A stretch of DNA of 5,538 bases from Escherichia phage SECphi17 (LT960607), one strand, 5' to 3'. Counted from the stretch's first letter, positions 1-5,538 are shown. Notes: a model not told the origin generated them from the sequence alone. Made by a program: numbers and translations.

Positions 1-1377
1 GATACATTCACCCTGGACGATATCATTTCCGGTAAACCAATCCCTGAAACTGCCCCTGATGAATTTCGCCTCTCCGATGAAATCGGTGAGGACTATCGTC
101 TTACCGTCCTTAAAATTGTCGATGAATTGCAAGAATGTTACGACGTGCTCGGACAACTTGATATTAATAACACTATAGACCACACCACTAAAGGTAACGT
201 CCACTGGAGTATGCTTTATGATAAACCTGTTAACACACATTGGTCACAGCTCGTATCTAAACGACCCCTTAAAGATATCCGCGCCGATTACAACTATGCA
301 AAGGCGAAGGGTATCAAGGATGAATGCTCAAAAATGCTTGAGGAGTCCACTATGAAATCACGACGTGGCTTTACCGTTCAAAGATTGATGAATGCCATGC
401 GCCAGGCCCACACTGATGGCTGGTATGTTGTATTCGACACTCTTACTCTGGCTGATGACCGCATACAGGCTTTCTATGATAATCCCAATGCTCTTCGTGA
501 CTACTTCCGTGATATTGGTCGTATGGTGCTTGCTGCCGAGGGTCGCTCTGCTAATGACTCACACGCCGACTGCTATCAGTATTTTTGTGTTCCAGAGTAT
601 GGCACACAGCACGGTCGTCTACATTTCCATGCAGTGCATCTTATGCGCACACTTCCTTTGGGTTCTTGTGACCCTAACTTCGGTAAGCTGGTACGCACTA
701 ATCGCCAAATAAACTCCTTGCAAAATACATGGCCCTATGGCTATTCTATGCCCATTGCAGTCCGGTACTCCCAAGACGCATTCTCGCGCGCTGGCTGGCT
801 CTGGCCTGTCGACTCAAAGGGTGAACCCCTTAAAGCTACCTCGTATCAGGCTGTCGGTTTCTACGTCGCTAAATACGTTAATAAAAAATCTGATATTGAT
901 CTGGCTGCAAAAGGCCTAGGGAATAAAGAATGGAACGCATCACTCAAGACCAAAATATCTCTACTACCAACCAAACTTTTCAGAATCCGGATGTCCCGCA
1001 ACTTCGGGATGAAGATGTTATCAATGGCGCACCTGACCGCCGAAACATTAATCCAACTGACCCAGCTGGGTTACGACTCGACCCCGTTCAACAACGTCTT
1101 GAGACAGAACGCCAAGAAAGAGCTGAAATCGAGGCTGGCAAAAACATCTGTCGCGACCGTTTTGGCGGCGCAACCTGTAACGACCAATCTGCTAAAATTT
1201 ATGCGCGATTTGACCCGAACAATCGGAGCGTCCAACCTGCAGAATTTTATCGCTTCAATGACGCAGAAATTAACACTCATGGATATTTCTGATGAAACCA
1301 AAAACTACCTTGCTGCTGCAGGAATTACTACATCTTGCTTACGAATTAAATCGAAGTGGACTGCTGGCGGAAAATGA
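1..1377 (+). CDS. A: Replication initiator protein A (rolling-circle HUH endonuclease), 3' portion; 5' end is at 5226 across the circular junction. Full gene is 1635 nt (544 aa).
   Basis: Frame 1 is open from base 1 to TGA at 1375-1377. Translation matches recalled phiX174 protein A over most of its length (e.g. [54 protein letters not shown]). HUH-type motif HFHAVH at 622-639; paired catalytic tyrosines in [10 protein letters not shown] (Tyr codons 862-864 and 874-876). The TTG at 127 in the ORF track is only the first start-like codon, not the real start. Confidence 0.95.
154..183 (+). other. Viral (+)-strand origin of rolling-circle replication: the 30-nt protein A recognition and nicking sequence, inside gene A.
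   Basis: CAACTTGATATTAATAACACTATAGACCAC at 154-183 is identical to the conserved 30-nt origin of phiX174-type phages as I recall it. The expected nick is between G160 and A161. Confidence 0.85.
352..1377 (+). CDS. A*: A* protein, from an internal in-frame start of gene A (341 aa).
   Basis: In-frame ATG at 352-354 (MKSRRGF...) preceded by GAGGAG at 340-345. Position and sequence match the recalled phiX174 A* start. Cannot be proven from sequence alone. Confidence 0.6.
718..747 (+). promoter_or_regulatory. Candidate sigma70 promoter pB inside gene A: -35 TTGCAA (718-723), -10 TATTCT (742-747), 18-nt spacer.
   Basis: Sequence match to -35/-10 consensus. It is positionally homologous to the recalled phiX174 pB region (TTGCAAAATACGTGGCC...), about 190 nt upstream of B. 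Not experimentally supported here. Confidence 0.35.
930..1292 (+). CDS. B: Internal scaffolding protein B (120 aa), encoded in an alternate frame entirely within gene A.
   Basis: ATG at 930-932, TGA at 1290-1292. C-terminal half closely matches recalled phiX174 B (EIEAGK..., [32 protein letters not shown]); N-terminal half is divergent. Confidence 0.9.
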
Positions 1378-1456
1378 AGAAATTCAATCTTGCATTAAAG
1401 AACTCGAGAGGGTCTTACTTCACAACCTTTCGCCATCAGCTCGCAATAGTCGCTAA
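1292..1456 (+). CDS. K: Protein K (54 aa), overlapping the end of A and the start of C in a third frame.
   Basis: ATG at 1292-1294 overlaps the B stop (TGATG). Hand translation gives [54 protein letters not shown], stop TAA at 1454-1456. Similar to recalled phiX174 K (..[13 protein letters not shown]...). Too short for the supplied ORF track. Confidence 0.8.
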
Positions 1457-1634
1457 GACTGATGCTCTTGATGAAGAAAAATGGCTCAATATGCTGGGCA
1501 CTCTTCTTAAGGACTGGTTCCGTTACGAAGAACATTTCGTACATGGCAAACAATCTTTAGTTAACATATTAATCGAGCGGGGGTTAATATCCCCCACACA
1601 AACAACCCGTAACAATAAAGGAAATACCAAATGA
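1374..1634 (+). CDS. C: Protein C (86 aa), DNA maturation / ssDNA synthesis switch.
   Basis: ATG at 1374-1376 overlaps the A stop TGA at 1375-1377 (ATGA). Protein [23 protein letters not shown]...[27 protein letters not shown] matches recalled phiX174 C. The track's GTG at 1356 is an upstream in-frame extension I reject. Confidence 0.9.
1561..1590 (+). promoter_or_regulatory. Candidate sigma70 promoter pD inside gene C: -35 TTAACA (1561-1566), -10 TAATAT (1585-1590), 18-nt spacer.
   Basis: Consensus-like hexamers at the position homologous to recalled phiX174 pD (GTTGACATTTTAAAAGAGCGTGGATTACTAT), upstream of D. Confidence 0.4.
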
Positions 1635-2086
1635 ACTCCAACGAATCTGCTGTAGCCTTTCAAACTGCAATTGCTTCTATCAAAATGATTCAAGCCTCAT
1701 CCGTCCTCGACCTCACCGAGGATGACTTCGAATTCTTAACTGGTGACCGTGTCTGGATTGCTACCGACCGTTCTCGCGCTCGCCGTGCTGTGGAGGCCTG
1801 CGTTTATGGCACACTGGACTTTGTCGGGTATCCTCGCTTTCCTGCTCCTGTTGAGTTTATTTCTGCTGTTATCGCTTACTACGTTCATCCGGTCAACATC
1901 CAGACCGCTTGCCTCATCATGGAAGGAGCCGAGTTTACTGAAAACATCGTCAATGGCGTTGAATCCCCAGTTAAGGCTTCCGAACTCTTCGCTTTCGTTC
2001 TCCGTGTCCGCGCTGGCTGTAAAGACGTCCTCGAAGGTGCCGAAGACAACATCCGCGCTAAACTCCGTGCACAAGGAATCATGTAA
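1631..2086 (+). CDS. D: External scaffolding protein D (151 aa).
   Basis: ATG at 1631-1633 overlaps the C stop (ATGA at 1631-1634). Very high similarity to recalled phiX174 D (VWIATDRSRARR.VEACVYGTLDFVGYPRFPAPVEF, VIAYYVHPVNIQTACLIMEGAEFTENI.NGVE). Confidence 0.95.
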   Translation: MNSNESAVAFQTAIASIKMIQASSVLDLTEDDFEFLTGDRVWIATDRSRARRAVEACVYGTLDFVGYPRFPAPVEFISAVIAYYVHPVNIQTACLIMEGAEFTENIVNGVESPVKASELFAFVLRVRAGCKDVLEGAEDNIRAKLRAQGIM

Positions 2087-2093
2087 TGGCTAA
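1806..2093 (+). CDS. E: Lysis protein E homolog (95 aa), encoded in an alternate frame inside D and running 7 nt past the D stop into J. Atypical transmembrane segment (see findings).
   Basis: ATG at 1806-1808 with GGAGG at 1792-1796. Product MAHWTLSGILAFLLLLSLFLLLSLTTFIRSTSRPLASSWK aligns without gaps to recalled phiX174 E (MVRWTLWDTLAFLLLLSLLLPSLLIMFIPSTFKRPVSSWK). Stop TAA at 2091-2093. Confidence 0.75.
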   Translation: MAHWTLSGILAFLLLLSLFLLLSLTTFIRSTSRPLASSWKEPSLLKTSSMALNPQLRLPNSSLSFSVSALAVKTSSKVPKTTSALNSVHKESCNG

Positions 2094-2172
2094 AGGCAAA
2101 TCATATCGTCGCGGCTCCGCTGGCAACAAAAAAGGCTCTCGCCTCTGGTACGTTGGCGGCTCACAATTCTAA
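2086..2172 (+). CDS. J: Small basic DNA-binding (packaging) protein J, 28 aa.
   Basis: ATG at 2086-2088 overlaps the D stop (TAATG). Hand translation MAKGKSYRRGSAGNKKGSRLWYVGGSQF, stop TAA at 2170-2172. Lys/Arg-rich with the conserved RLWYVGG motif of microvirus J proteins. Confidence 0.8.
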   Translation: MAKGKSYRRGSAGNKKGSRLWYVGGSQF

Positions 2173-2179
2173 TCTCTCT

Positions 2180-2193
2180 GGGGCTTCGGCCCC
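2180..2193 (+). terminator. J-F intergenic stem-loop GGGGC-TTCG-GCCCC (weak terminator / mRNA-stabilising hairpin).
   Basis: Perfect 5-bp GC stem with a UUCG tetraloop. The same GGGGCTTCGGCCCC element sits in the J-F spacer of phiX174 as I recall it. No strong U-tract follows, so termination is probably partial. Confidence 0.5.
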
Positions 2194-2209
2194 AATTTAA
2201 GGATATAAA

Positions 2210-3496
2210 ATGTCTAATGTTCAAACTTCCGCTTCTCGCGATGCAATTGATTTATCACATCTGGTCTTCAACACTGGCGCTATTGGTCGTCTTAAAGTCG
2301 CGTCATGGACTCCTGTTATTGCTGGTGATTCTTTCCAGCTTGATGCTGTTGGTGCTTTACGCTTATCCCCTCTGCGTCGTGGCCTGGCTATTGACTCAAC
2401 TGTTGACTACTTCACTTTTTACATTCCACACCGTCATATCTATGGCAATGCATGGATTGAATTTATGAAAACTGGTGTCGCCGCCGCTTCTCTTAACCCT
2501 GTAACCACTGCGGCTTATGTTGACGGTGCTTCTTATCTCGGTGTTATTCCTTCTGCTGACAACAAGGTTCCTAAATTCCTGCACCAAGGCTATCTCAATA
2601 TTTATAATAACTACTTCAAAGCCCCTTGGATGGCTGACCGTACTGAGGCAAACCCATCCAACTTAAATGATGACGACCGTCGTCACGGCTTCCGTTGCTG
2701 TCATTTAAAAAACATCTGGTCTGCGCCTCTTCCTCCTCAAACGGAAATTACCCGCGCTATGACTACTGGCGCTACCTCCATTGATATTATGGGTCTTCAA
2801 GCTGCTTACGCCCAACTTCACACTGACCAAGAACGTGACTACTTCATGCAGCGTTACCGTGACGTTATCTCTTCTTTTGGTGGCAAAACTCACTATGACG
2901 CTGATAACCGTCCTCTTCTGCTTATGCGCTCTAACTTCTGGGCATCTGGCTATGACATTGACGGTACTGACCAAACTTCTTTGGGTCAATTCTCTGGTCG
3001 CGTCCAGCAAACTTTCCGTCACTCTGTTCCTCGCTTCTTCGTGCCTGAACATGGCGTTGTTATGACTCTTCAACTTGTACGCTTCCCGCCTACCTGTACC
3101 GAGGAAACTCACTACCTCGTTGGCAAAGGCGCACTAAGCTATACTGACCTCGCGGGTGACCCTACTCTTTACGGTAACTTACCGCCTCGAGAAATCGAAA
3201 TGAAAAATCTCTTCCGTGGCGCTGCTGGCTCTACTGAAAAAATCAAAATTGCCGAAGGGCAATGGTATCGCTATCATCCTTCTTACGTTGATGGCCAATA
3301 TCACAACCTTAAAGGCTTCCCGTTCATCCTAAACGGCCCAACCGGCAACATGGAAAATCGTGTACTGATTGACCATAAAAAATATGACGAATGCTTCCAG
3401 TCACTTCAATTAACCCATTGGAATGCTCAGGCTAAATACAATGTCACTGTATATCGACACATCCCAACCACTCGTGATAGCATCATGACTTCTTAA
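2210..3496 (+). CDS. F: Major capsid protein F (428 aa).
   Basis: ATG at 2210 with AAGGA at 2199-2203. Long stretches match recalled phiX174 F (LRLSPLRRGLAIDSTVD, HQGYLNIYNNYFKAPWM, GFRCCHLKNIW.APLPP, IDIMGLQAAYA.LHTDQERDYFMQRY, QTSLGQFSGRVQQT, PTTRDSIMTS). Confidence 0.97.
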   Translation: MSNVQTSASRDAIDLSHLVFNTGAIGRLKVASWTPVIAGDSFQLDAVGALRLSPLRRGLAIDSTVDYFTFYIPHRHIYGNAWIEFMKTGVAAASLNPVTTAAYVDGASYLGVIPSADNKVPKFLHQGYLNIYNNYFKAPWMADRTEANPSNLNDDDRRHGFRCCHLKNIWSAPLPPQTEITRAMTTGATSIDIMGLQAAYAQLHTDQERDYFMQRYRDVISSFGGKTHYDADNRPLLLMRSNFWASGYDIDGTDQTSLGQFSGRVQQTFRHSVPRFFVPEHGVVMTLQLVRFPPTCTEETHYLVGKGALSYTDLAGDPTLYGNLPPREIEMKNLFRGAAGSTEKIKIAEGQWYRYHPSYVDGQYHNLKGFPFILNGPTGNMENRVLIDHKKYDECFQSLQLTHWNAQAKYNVTVYRHIPTTRDSIMTS

Positions 3497-3507
3497 AGCC
3501 TATAACG

Positions 3508-3545
3508 TGACAGGGGGAAAAATTTTAATTTTTCGCCCCCTGTCA
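3508..3545 (+). other. F-G intergenic hairpin: 10-bp perfect stem (TGACAGGGGG / CCCCCTGTCA) enclosing an AT-rich loop AAAAATTTTAATTTTTCG. Candidate complementary-strand priming site and/or terminator TF.
   Basis: Inverted repeat 3508-3517 / 3536-3545 read directly from the sequence. The loop is nearly identical to the recalled phiX174 F-G loop (TAAAAATTTTAATTTTTG). Confidence 0.5.
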
Positions 3546-3595
3546 GGTTGAACAAGCGCAAGCGCGTTAGCTGCCTAACTATAAGGACTACTCAA

Positions 3596-4120
3596 ATGTT
3601 CCAGAACTTTGTTACTAAACACAATTCTCCTCAATTTACTACTACTATCACAAAGGCCGTCACTCCTGCCGCGTTGGCTCCTATTATTAATACGCCAACC
3701 GTTGCGCGTGACAATTTCTTTGTGAGCTTAACTACTACCGCCCTAACTTCTCCGGGCGGTATCTCTGCTGTTGTCGCTATCGACAACTCTTCTCATACCG
3801 ACAATCAGGTTATTTCTATTGCTGCCTCTCTTTCTACTACTGGCAGCCTAGTACCTGTTCTTTGTCGGTTTGAATCTGCTACTGTACCAACGGCTATTCC
3901 CGCATCTGCGGTTACTTACTACCCGTTGGGCTTTACATCATCTGCTACCGCTTTGTCTGTCAAGGACTGCGCTACTGTCTCTACTCTTTCCCGCTCTGGC
4001 AATCCTGTTTATGTAGGTATTGTCCTTATTGCGAAATCATTTGTCGCTGATACTGTATACGGCTCTATCTCAATTAATCAGGTTGACCAAGAAATCACAA
4101 CTCTGCAACCTCTCAAATAA
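3596..4120 (+). CDS. G: Major spike protein G (174 aa).
   Basis: ATG at 3596-3598 with AAGGA at 3583-3587. Conserved N-terminus MFQ.F..HNS and C-terminus ..VKDC.T......R..GN.VYVG.......LQPLK relative to recalled phiX174/G4 G; the middle is divergent. The track's TTG at 3548 would start translation inside the intergenic hairpin region and is rejected. Confidence 0.9.
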   Translation: MFQNFVTKHNSPQFTTTITKAVTPAALAPIINTPTVARDNFFVSLTTTALTSPGGISAVVAIDNSSHTDNQVISIAASLSTTGSLVPVLCRFESATVPTAIPASAVTYYPLGFTSSATALSVKDCATVSTLSRSGNPVYVGIVLIAKSFVADTVYGSISINQVDQEITTLQPLK

Positions 4121-4129
4121 GGAATCTCT

Positions 4130-5167
4130 ATGTTTGGTTTAATCGCTGGCGGCATCGCCTCTGCTCTTGCTGGTGGTTTAATGTCCAAATTGATGGGCGG
4201 CAATAAACAAGCCGCCCCCTCAACTCCCGGACAAGGCCTCTTCGCTACTCCTGAAACTACTATCTCTGCTGATAATGCAGGTATTCAATCTGTTATGCAG
4301 GGGCCTAACCCGCCCGGCCCTGACCAAGCGGCTCCTTCATTTACCGAATCTGCCGTCTCCTCATTTAAGGATGTCGGCAAAGGACTTCTCGATGGTACTC
4401 TACAAGCTGGCGGCTCTGCTGTTCAACAAGCTCTTCTTAACAAAATTGGCCTCGGTGGTAAATCTGCTTCTGATAAAGGCGAGGACACTAAGGATTATCT
4501 TGCTGCTGCGTTCCCAGAACTCAACCCGTGGGAACGCGCTGGCGCTGGTGCTTCCTCTGCTGGCATGGTTGACGCAGGTTTTGAGAATCAAAAAGAACTA
4601 ACCAAAATGCAACTTGATAACCAAGTCAAAATCGCTAAGATGCAAAACGACACGCAAAAGGATATTGCTGGTATCCAGTCTGTCACTTCTCGGTTAAATA
4701 CCAAGGATTCTGTGTATGCTCAAAACGAAATGCTCTCATACAATCAAAGAGAATCTATGTCACGCGTTGGCGCTATTCTCGAAAACACAAGCCTCACCAA
4801 ACAACAACAAGTCTCTGAAATTATGCGGCAAATGCTTACTCAGGCTCAGACCGCAGGTCAATATTTTACAAATGACCAAATTCAAGAGCTTACTCGAAAG
4901 GTTGGTGCTGATATTGATGCTGTTCGCGCTAACACTGAGCGCACCAATGTAGAAACAGGCCGCTCCAAACAAGAGCTACAAAACTCACGTTATGCATCTT
5001 CACAGGTCGGTAAAACAGCCAAGGATATCTCAAATGTCATTATTGATGCATCTTCTGGTATTGTTGATTATTTCCGTGGCATTGATAAAGCTGTTGGCGA
5101 CACTTGGAACAATTATTGGAAAGATGGTAAAGCCGACGGAGTAGGCTCCAACATGTCTCGCAAATAG
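4130..5167 (+). CDS. H: DNA pilot / minor spike protein H (345 aa).
   Basis: ATG at 4130 with AAGGA 8 nt upstream. Glycine-rich N-terminus [16 protein letters not shown] and long matches to recalled phiX174 H ([101 protein letters not shown]). Confidence 0.95.
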
Positions 5168-5168
5168 T

Positions 5169-5198
5169 TTGACAATCACATCATAAATCCTATCTAAT
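5169..5198 (+). promoter_or_regulatory. Candidate sigma70 promoter pA in the H-A intergenic region: -35 TTGACA (5169-5174), -10 TCTAAT (5193-5198), 18-nt spacer.
   Basis: Perfect -35 hexamer immediately after the H stop and a 5/6 -10 match. Same placement as recalled phiX174 pA. Confidence 0.45.
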
Positions 5199-5220
5199 AG
5201 CCTCCATTAACACGGAGGCT
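5199..5220 (+). other. H-A intergenic hairpin AGCCTCC-ATTAACAC-GGAGGCT, whose 3' arm contains the gene A Shine-Dalgarno sequence.
   Basis: Perfect 7-bp inverted repeat 5199-5205 / 5214-5220. GGAGG at 5214-5218 lies 7 nt before the A ATG at 5226. Homologous in position to recalled phiX174 GCCTCCAAATCTTGGAGGC. Confidence 0.5.
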
Positions 5221-5225
5221 TTAAC

Positions 5226-5538
5226 ATGTCTGTAGAACTCATCAAACCACTTGTAGAAGCTGCTGGCATGTCCACGCTTACACAATCTCCAAACCTCCGC
5301 ATCTGGAAACAAGTAAACACTCGCGTAAAATTACTTGAAGAAATCCTTACTTATTACACAAACGGAATCCGTCGCTGCCCTGACACTCAGGACTTCTACA
5401 TGAATCCAAATTCACAACTTGCAACCACTATTGCCTATCGTGCTCATCAAAAGGGACACAATCCAAAATTCAAACAATACCCTGATACATTCACCCTGGA
5501 CGATATCATTTCCGGTAAACCAATCCCTGAAACTGCCC
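5226..5538 (+). CDS. A: Replication initiator protein A, 5' portion (runs to window end; continues in frame at 1..1377 of the circular genome).
   Basis: ATG at 5226 is the first start after an in-frame TAA at 5208-5210. GGAGG at 5214-5218 sits 7 nt upstream. The frame stays open to the window end, and 5484-5538 is identical to 1-55, joining frame 1 of the A body. Confidence 0.85.
   Translation, partial: MSVELIKPLVEAAGMSTLTQSPNLRIWKQVNTRVKLLEEILTYYTNGIRRCPDTQDFYMNPNSQLATTIAYRAHQKGHNPKFKQYPDTFTLDDIISGKPIPETA
5484..5538. repeat. 55-nt terminal direct repeat identical to bases 1-55: overlap from linearising a circular genome, not a biological repeat.
   Basis: Exact identity of 5484-5538 with 1-55, read directly. 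Gene A reads through the junction in frame. Confidence 0.9.

Follow-up and report, generated by a model that had tools for sequence, protein, structure and literature searches.

The genome of coliphage SECphi17 (LT960607) raises the question of whether it was put together from pieces of the classical microviruses phiX174 and G4. The window that we analyzed, the whole stretch of 5,538 nucleotides (nt), had been described in a first-pass annotation as a mosaic of phiX174-like and G4-like parts, either a natural recombinant or an engineered or designed chimera. We conclude, with a probability of roughly 93%, that it is the complete circular genome of a natural Bullavirinae coliphage from the SECphi17/Lille lineage, that it carries one intra-lineage recombinant segment, and that it has no recent origin in a cross between phiX174 and G4.

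SECphi17 is a Microviridae coliphage with single-stranded DNA (ssDNA) (10.1101/2021.12.14.472599). It was isolated in the Sorek laboratory and is widely used as an ssDNA test phage in studies of anti-phage defense. Both the genome and the lineage are already public, and the lineage, with its odd gene G, has been described by Olsen et al. 2020 (PMC7552041). As a genome the window adds little; what the analysis provides is a correction of the mosaic interpretation and two unannotated features, a lysis protein E without the reportedly essential Pro21 and a block between genes F and G that is shared with phage ID2.

Every gene has its nearest neighbors in one lineage

A BLAST search against 50,697 phage records returned full-length matches of 92.9–94.1% identity to Lilleput, MG1, lillemer, Lilledu, Lilleto and Lilleen. 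The Lille phages and MG1 are wastewater or sludge isolates on Escherichia coli K-12, from Denmark and China, and NCBI taxonomy lists the Lille phages and SECphi17 as Bullavirinae without a genus. Whole-genome nucleotide identities from a MAFFT alignment are 93.8% to Lilleput, 93.5% to MG1, 93.4% to both lillemer and Lilledu and 92.8% to Lilleto, so that five of the six isolates lie at 92.8–93.8% with 100% coverage, above the ~90% over the whole genome that we took as the mark of membership in the lineage. Lilleen, with a gapped F-G region, stands at 90.4%; its record also has aberrant F and G coordinates. Identity then drops to 78.5% for PJNS002, 72.8% for ID2, 72.1% for ID18 and 70.7% for G4 (72–74% for the last three with gap columns excluded), 64.2% for phiX174 and 47.8% for alpha3.

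The best identity in the phage collection, 93.8%, is under the 95% at which Olsen et al. draw the boundary between species (PMC7552041). These authors found the Lille phages to be 92.6–94.5% similar to SECphi17 (LT960607), an unclassified Escherichia phage, and 59–68% similar to recognized gequatroviruses, with almost no similarity in the G region, and placed the Lille lineage among the gequatroviruses by synteny. Our metagenome scan gave one relative, ENA contig OBLN01002562.1 (a 5,484-nt unit plus a 55-nt overlap, 90.9% identical), and protein clusters show about eight further contigs of the lineage from Logan, ENA and JGI. A search of IMG/VR with the window's G protein found no relatives, consistent with Olsen et al. 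Members of the lineage are SECphi17, MG1 (China), the Lille phages from Danish wastewater and the metagenome contig OBLN01002562.

Amino acid identities computed gene by gene against 18 genomes, a sliding-window identity profile and per-gene bootstrap trees all bear on the origin of the individual genes. Every gene has the same nearest neighbors, the Lille phages and MG1, at 82–100% amino acid identity (mostly 87–100%). The percentages below are amino acid identities to Lille/MG1, to G4 and to phiX174, in that order:

A: 95–96, 85, 66
A, N-terminal part: 91–93, 82, 37
A*: 97–98, 88, 83
B: 92–95, 68, 57
K: 82–89, 77, 58
C: 87–92, 75, 70
D: 99–100, 89, 83
E: 94–97, 55, 45
J: 100, 67, 70
F: 97–98, 67, 74
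G: 93–95, 40, 39
H: 92–94, 70, 68

The first-pass annotation had itself named a common nearest neighbor for all genes as the result that would speak against a mosaic, and this is essentially what the per-gene comparisons and the trees return. Gene A, taken there for phiX174-like, is G4-like (85% versus 66%; 82% versus 37% in the N-terminal part), and D, given the same label, is marginally closer to G4 (89% versus 83%) and is 100% identical to D of Lilleput, Lilleen and MG1. The supposed G4-type G is a lineage-specific protein, 40% identical to G4 and 39% to phiX174, 93–95% to Lille/MG1 and at most 49% to all others. For F the label holds in part: it is closer to phiX174 than to G4 (74% versus 67%) but is a member of neither clade.

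Bootstrap support for placing the window with Lilleput, Lilleto and MG1 is 100% in each of the trees of A*, D, F, G and H, whereas the C tree gives 90%. The trees of the A N-terminus, C and D place it on the G4 side, with 83–96% support for the split from phiX174 and alpha3. For replication and scaffolding genes, the lineage comes closest to the G4 group; its F falls outside the G4 clade, and its G is a type apart.

The same trees contain signs of exchange elsewhere. F of WA13, an alpha3-group phage, falls in the G4-like F clade with 100% bootstrap support, and G of ID2 groups with the phiX174-type G (87%). Both are gene transfers between clades of classical Bullavirinae, and neither involves the window.

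Two assemblies close the same circle

The ends of the window are 100% identical to each other, which leaves a unit of 5,483 nt:

1–55, plus strand: first copy of the terminal overlap, inside gene A and identical to 5484–5538; assembly signature of a circular molecule
5484–5538, plus strand: second copy of the terminal overlap, redundant with 1–55

Through an exact-protein look-up we found Logan contig ERR2231584_64 (ENA run ERR2231584; 5,513 nt), which holds the identical 5,483-nt unit with 0 mismatches. Circularity is supported because this independent assembly is linearized 3,807 nt away from the window's cut point and closes the circle with a 30-nt overlap of its own. With two assemblies, different cuts and overlaps of k-mer length, it is well supported that the template was circular or concatemeric. 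We take the overlaps of 55 and 30 nt to reflect the k of a de Bruijn-graph assembler (k = 55, and k – 1 for k = 31). The unit has the size of a circular Bullavirinae genome (~5.4–6.1 kb) and would be ssDNA. The earlier description of a complete circular microvirus of 5,483 nt whose ends overlap by 55 nt was thus correct, as were the lengths quoted with it for phiX174 (5,386) and G4 (5,577).

These data also bear on an engineered or computationally designed chimera, made by synthetic biology or written by a genome language model, which the first-pass annotation had allowed for. Nothing specific points to such a product beyond the fact that the nearest catalogued phage is only ~94% identical, and we see practically no chance of it. 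The identical unit was assembled independently from ERR2231584, and its natural relatives, a metagenome contig and six isolates collected in two countries, belong to one lineage and agree in gene lengths. The window differs from each of the six isolates by ~330–390 substitutions (333–386) scattered over the whole genome, and it has no seams of 100% identity with model phages. Its cut point inside gene A, together with an overlap of k-mer length, is typical of an assembler rather than of a designed sequence.

One segment points to exchange between sub-lineages

The sliding-window profile sets one part of the circle apart:

4463–5483 and on through 1–131, plus strand: phylogenetically discordant segment of ~1.15 kb, running from the 3' half of H across the H-A spacer into the 5' part of A

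Here the identity between the window and the Lille phages falls to 84–91%, and that to PJNS002 climbs to 91–95%. We scanned the circle by a MaxChi-type method in which the window was the query and the parents were Lilleput and PJNS002. The breakpoints came out at ~4462 and ~131 with a chi-squared of 277, a value reached in none of 200 permutations. From 132 to 4462, 887 informative sites are of the Lilleput type and 71 of the PJNS002 type, against 36 and 68 in the complement. The 4.3-kb partition makes the window sister to the six Lille/MG1 phages (97–100% bootstrap); over this part Lilleput is 95.3% and PJNS002 76.3% identical to it. In the tree of the 1.15-kb partition, the window, OBLN01002562 and PJNS002 stand together against the Lille/MG1 clade with 90% support, and identity is 91.7% to PJNS002 and 88.9% to Lilleput. 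The history of this segment differs from that of the remaining genome and points to homologous recombination within the group, between its sub-lineages.

Such exchange is common among the sub-lineages. The C-terminal half of H exists as a two-state haplotype (TSGQHFTNAQI marks one state) that is reassorted among lineage members. OBLN01002562 is itself a mosaic, with a gene A core (~340–1000 of the window) that is 76–86% identical and tracks the PJNS002 profile, and PJNS002 is mosaic against the Lille backbone, at 90–95% in the H 3' and A 5' parts and ~76% elsewhere. The idea of a natural recombinant therefore survives for one intra-lineage segment found by the breakpoint scan, but not as a mixture of phiX174 and G4. 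Recombination of sub-lineages operates in microviruses that infect K-12, and one of the breakpoints adjoins the replication origin:

154–183, plus strand: viral-strand origin core, 30 nt, CAACTTGATATTAATAACACTATAGACCAC, equal to the phiX174 rep_origin region 4299–4328

The breakpoint near 131 (~127–132) lies ~20 nt upstream of this core, with a precision limited by the spacing of informative sites. The proximity may be a coincidence or may mark an origin-associated recombination hot spot, which is a suggestive arrangement for a rolling-circle replicon.

A recent cross between phiX174-like and G4-like phages is very unlikely

The remaining alternative is a recent natural recombinant of a phiX174-like and a G4-like phage with whole genes or modules from both clades. 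Several observations fit such a cross and weigh against our reading: F is nearer to phiX174 (74% versus 67%) while A, B, K, C and D are nearer to G4; the F-G spacer has the hairpin architecture of phiX174, not the three-hairpin region of G4; and the C/D overlap is ATGA as in phiX174 and ID2, unlike G4. Other points on the same side concern method and history. The trees are neighbor-joining bootstrap trees on simple distances, not maximum-likelihood trees, and our identities between the window and the Lille phages lie within the 92.6–94.5% range of Olsen et al. but in a different rank order of phages. In the 1.15-kb segment, the window, the Lille phages and PJNS002 are nearly equidistant (88.9–91.7%), too evenly to point to a donor or a direction of transfer, and the recombinant could be the ancestor of the six Lille/MG1 phages instead of the window.

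Against this, none of the genes comes close to either clade. The highest values are those of D to G4 (89%) and A* to NC1, a phiX174-like phage in the comparison set (84%; 83% to phiX174), and the capsid and spike proteins reach only 67–74% (F) and 39–40% (G). The window joins phiX174 or G4 in none of the gene trees, and the placement of its F with phiX174 and alpha3 has just 34% support. The phiX174-type spacer also occurs in ID2 and ID18, both members of the G4 group. Because the longest exact runs are only 39 nt with phiX174 and 61 nt with G4, we see no recent seams between clades, and the only significant breakpoints (~4462 and ~131) separate two sub-lineages of the same group. Finally, the pattern is common to at least eight related genomes, which would make any such event an ancient one that belongs to the lineage rather than to this genome. 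On the sliding-window profile, the per-gene identities and the per-gene bootstrap trees we reject the phiX174/G4 mosaic, and we hold a recent cross to be very unlikely.

Two narrower signals were considered and set aside. We make no claim of a deep modular incongruence between F and the replication genes; the F tree merely excludes the G4-like clade and does not settle the topology of the four clades. The origin core, which had been counted as phiX174-like, is the same in G4, ID2, ID18, ID52 and the Lille phages and identical in 18 of the 20 loci compared. Because it is identical in phiX174-like, G4-like and Lille-like genomes, it discriminates no clade, and we rejected it as a marker of phiX174.

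The F-G spacer contains a block shared with ID2

The spacer between F and G, 99 nt from 3497 to 3595, folds as ssDNA into one long hairpin:

3504–3549, plus strand: long F-G hairpin with a AAAAATTTTAATTTTT core, then GGTTGAACAAGCGCAAGCGCGTTAG; –20.7 kcal/mol, z –4.8; phiX174 architecture
3494–3580, plus strand: 87-nt block 100% identical to ID2, covering the F stop codon and most of the F-G spacer

The AAAAATTTTAATTTTT core and the downstream motif GGTTGA.CAAGCG..AAGCGCG are common to the phiX174 F-G spacer, which we take to hold the PriA (n') primosome assembly site. By analogy, the hairpin is presumed to be a putative complementary-strand origin or primosome assembly site. The window lacks the G4-type multi-hairpin F-G region (~136 nt), and its spacer is 45% identical to that of G4; we assume the 136-nt three-hairpin region to be the primase-dependent origin of G4. 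Because ID2, ID18 and PJNS002 also have the phiX174-type architecture, that architecture is no sign of mosaicism in the window. It is the three-hairpin region that sets G4 sensu stricto apart from the rest.

The 87-nt block is nearer to ID2 (NC_007817; 100%) than to Lilleput (98.9%) or OBLN01002562 (97.7%), and the adjacent 300 nt on either side are only 60.9% (3' end of F) and 49.5% (5' end of G) identical to ID2. ID18, PJNS002 and phiX174 form the same hairpin with different compensating stems, and ID18 and PJNS002 show 73–78% identity. This suggests that a spacer cassette was transferred fairly recently between ID2-like and SECphi17-like lineages, with extreme constraint as the alternative. 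An exact block in the otherwise distant ID2 is a testable feature in a phage that defense-system laboratories use routinely.

Protein E lacks the proline at position 21

A second unannotated feature is the lysis gene:

1806–2093, plus strand: gene E, lysis protein, 95 amino acids, in the +1 frame within D; Leu21 variant

In 10 classical Bullavirinae (phiX174, NC1, G4, ID52, ID12, WA3, ID2, ID18, alpha3 and WA13), E residues 10–28 are near-invariant, LAFLLLLSL[LF]LPSLLIMFIP, with Pro21 and Pro29. The corresponding segment is LAFLLLLSLFLLLSLTTFIR in the window, OBLN01002562, the five Lille phages and MG1; position 21 is Leu, and no proline occurs until residue 32–34. PJNS002 has the same Leu21 segment but retains Pro29. 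Over codons 19–29 (~1860–1892), LFLLLSLTTF(I) replaces L[LF]LPSLLIMF(I) in nine of nine lineage genomes, and the E frame is open for 91–97 codons in all nine, PJNS002 included. These changes are silent in the frame of D, which overlaps E here and conserves the peptide EFISAVIAYYVHP, and whether E has Pro21 or Leu21 is set by GCC or GCT in an alanine codon of D. We surveyed this codon in IMG/VR with a degenerate DNA pattern because genes embedded in D are rarely called; the scan found the GCC state in 19 contigs and the GCT state in 0.

The substitution P21A abolishes lysis by E of ID52 (PMC11126076) and, as Witte et al. 1997 is cited, by E of phiX174. Both solved structures of E (8G01 and 8G02) are of Pro21-type proteins. 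E is annotated in no GenBank record of the lineage, which is why the Leu21 form has been overlooked. From its conservation between genomes that are only 76% identical, the Leu21 segment would be a functional alternative rather than a product of decay. Because the phages form plaques and the segment is conserved at that distance, we propose tentatively that E of this lineage might inhibit MraY or another target without the proline reported as required, a natural second solution to single-gene lysis; this is a possibility on which we would place somewhat less than even odds. The Leu21 E is the one point that might repay experiment, in a phage already routine in defense-system laboratories.

A complete Bullavirinae gene set

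All 11 canonical genes (A, A*, B, K, C, D, E, J, F, G and H) are present, as the first-pass annotation had stated; they are intact and lie on one strand. Besides E, and together with two intergenic hairpins, they are:

5226–5483, plus strand: 5' part of gene A, replication initiator; PF05840 Phage_GPA, 2e-59; joins position 1
1–1377, plus strand: 3' part of gene A; HUH motif GRLHFHAVH and two-tyrosine motif
352–1377, plus strand: A*, from an in-frame internal start; 341 amino acids, 1,026 nt as annotated in G4 and ID2
930–1292, plus strand: gene B, internal scaffolding; 120 amino acids; overlaps A; PF02304, 8e-43
1292–1456, plus strand: gene K; 54 amino acids; TGATG overlap with the B stop; PF12283, 6e-17
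1374–1634, plus strand: gene C; 86 amino acids; ATGA overlap with the A stop; PF12025, 7e-39
1631–2086, plus strand: gene D, external scaffolding; 151 amino acids; PF02925, 2e-81
2086–2172, plus strand: gene J, DNA-binding; 28 amino acids; TAATG overlap with the D stop; PF04726, 9e-9
2179–2194, plus strand: GC-rich hairpin GGGGCTTCGGCCCC between J and F; –6.9 kcal/mol, z –2.7
2210–3496, plus strand: gene F, major capsid; 428 amino acids; PF02305, 4e-150
3596–4120, plus strand: gene G, major spike; 174 amino acids; PF02306, 1e-28; lineage-specific type
4130–5167, plus strand: gene H, pilot or minor spike; 345 amino acids; PF04687, 3e-143
5199–5220, plus strand: hairpin AGCCTCC...GGAGGCT between H and A; –6.6 kcal/mol, z –4.1

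The set includes external scaffolding protein D and major spike protein G, both of which are absent from gokushoviruses. In a profile search, all 10 distinct products match their expected Pfam families (Phage_GPA, Phage_B, Protein_K, Phage_C, gpD, Microvir_lysis, Microvir_J, Phage_F, Phage_G and Microvir_H); E matches Microvir_lysis at 21.1 bits, under the curated cut-off of 25 bits, with a model that spans only the C-terminus of E. The overlap junctions A/C (ATGA), B/K (TGATG), C/D (ATGA) and D/J (TAATG) can all be read from the sequence. Across the junction of the circle, gene A is an intact frame of 544 codons (1,635 nt), the same length as in the Lille phages. It has the Bullavirinae combination of an HUH initiator (HFHAVH and a two-tyrosine site) with the conserved 30-nt origin inside the gene.

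The short J and longer H noted earlier are both borne out. J has 28 amino acids in the window, 38 in phiX174 and 25 in G4, and H has 345, 328 and 337, respectively. They are traits of the lineage: J is 100% identical in all Lille phages, and H has 345 amino acids in nearly all of them. Scans of the window gave no match to an Rfam family and no promoter or terminator consensus above shuffled expectation.

The gene functions are those expected by homology to phiX174 and G4. Protein A would nick the origin at 154–183 and drive rolling-circle synthesis; A*, B, C, D, J, F, G and H would serve host shut-off, scaffolding, packaging and virion formation; and E would serve lysis.

GenBank records of the lineage annotate five to seven coding sequences each, and A*, B, K, E and J are unannotated though intact in all of them. 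F of lillemer is truncated by the linearization point of its record, and H of Lilledu is annotated from a downstream start (328 amino acids).

Comparison with known systems

The Lille phages and MG1 (OR702609) share with the window the gene order, the lengths of A (544), J (28, 100% identical), G (174) and H (345 amino acids), the divergent G, the Leu21 form of E and the F-G spacer. The only indels that set Lilleput and MG1 apart from it are 7 additional nt in both phages, 3 + 4 on the two sides of the GGGGCTTCGGCCCC hairpin in the J-F spacer (2173–2209), and Lilledu and OBLN01002562 differ by a single additional nt where the H-A spacer ends (5225). The main difference in identity lies in the segment from 4463 through 131, in which the Lille phages and MG1 are only ~89% identical to the window.

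From the 3' half of H across the H-A spacer into the 5' part of A, Salmonella phage PJNS002 (PQ479935) is the nearest relative (91–95% nucleotide identity). Its A N-terminus is 95% identical in amino acids, and it shares Leu21 in E and a short J (26 amino acids). It differs elsewhere, with 76% nucleotide identity and amino acid identities of 61% in B and E, 78% in F and 46% in G. Its G is of another type, grouping with G of ID2 and phiX174 (89% and 87% bootstrap).

Among classical clades, the G4 group (genus Gequatrovirus: G4, ID52, ID12, WA3, ID2 and ID18) is nearest for A (83–85% amino acid identity), A*, B, K, C and D, and it shares the short J and an identical origin core. It differs in F (66–68%), G (40–49%) and H (69–74%), and the window's E is without Pro21. 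By nucleotide identity the window stands at 70.7–72.8% to G4, ID2 and ID18, and its F and G fall outside the G4-like clade in the trees. The ICTV convention for nucleotide similarity at the genus level is ~70%.

Finally, phiX174 (Sinsheimervirus) shares the 11-gene architecture, the overlap junctions, the origin core and the F-G hairpin architecture with its downstream motif. It differs in 64% nucleotide identity overall, in amino acid identities of 37% (A N-terminus), 39% (G), 68% (H) and 45% (E), and in a J of 38 instead of 28 amino acids. These values place the window outside Sinsheimervirus.

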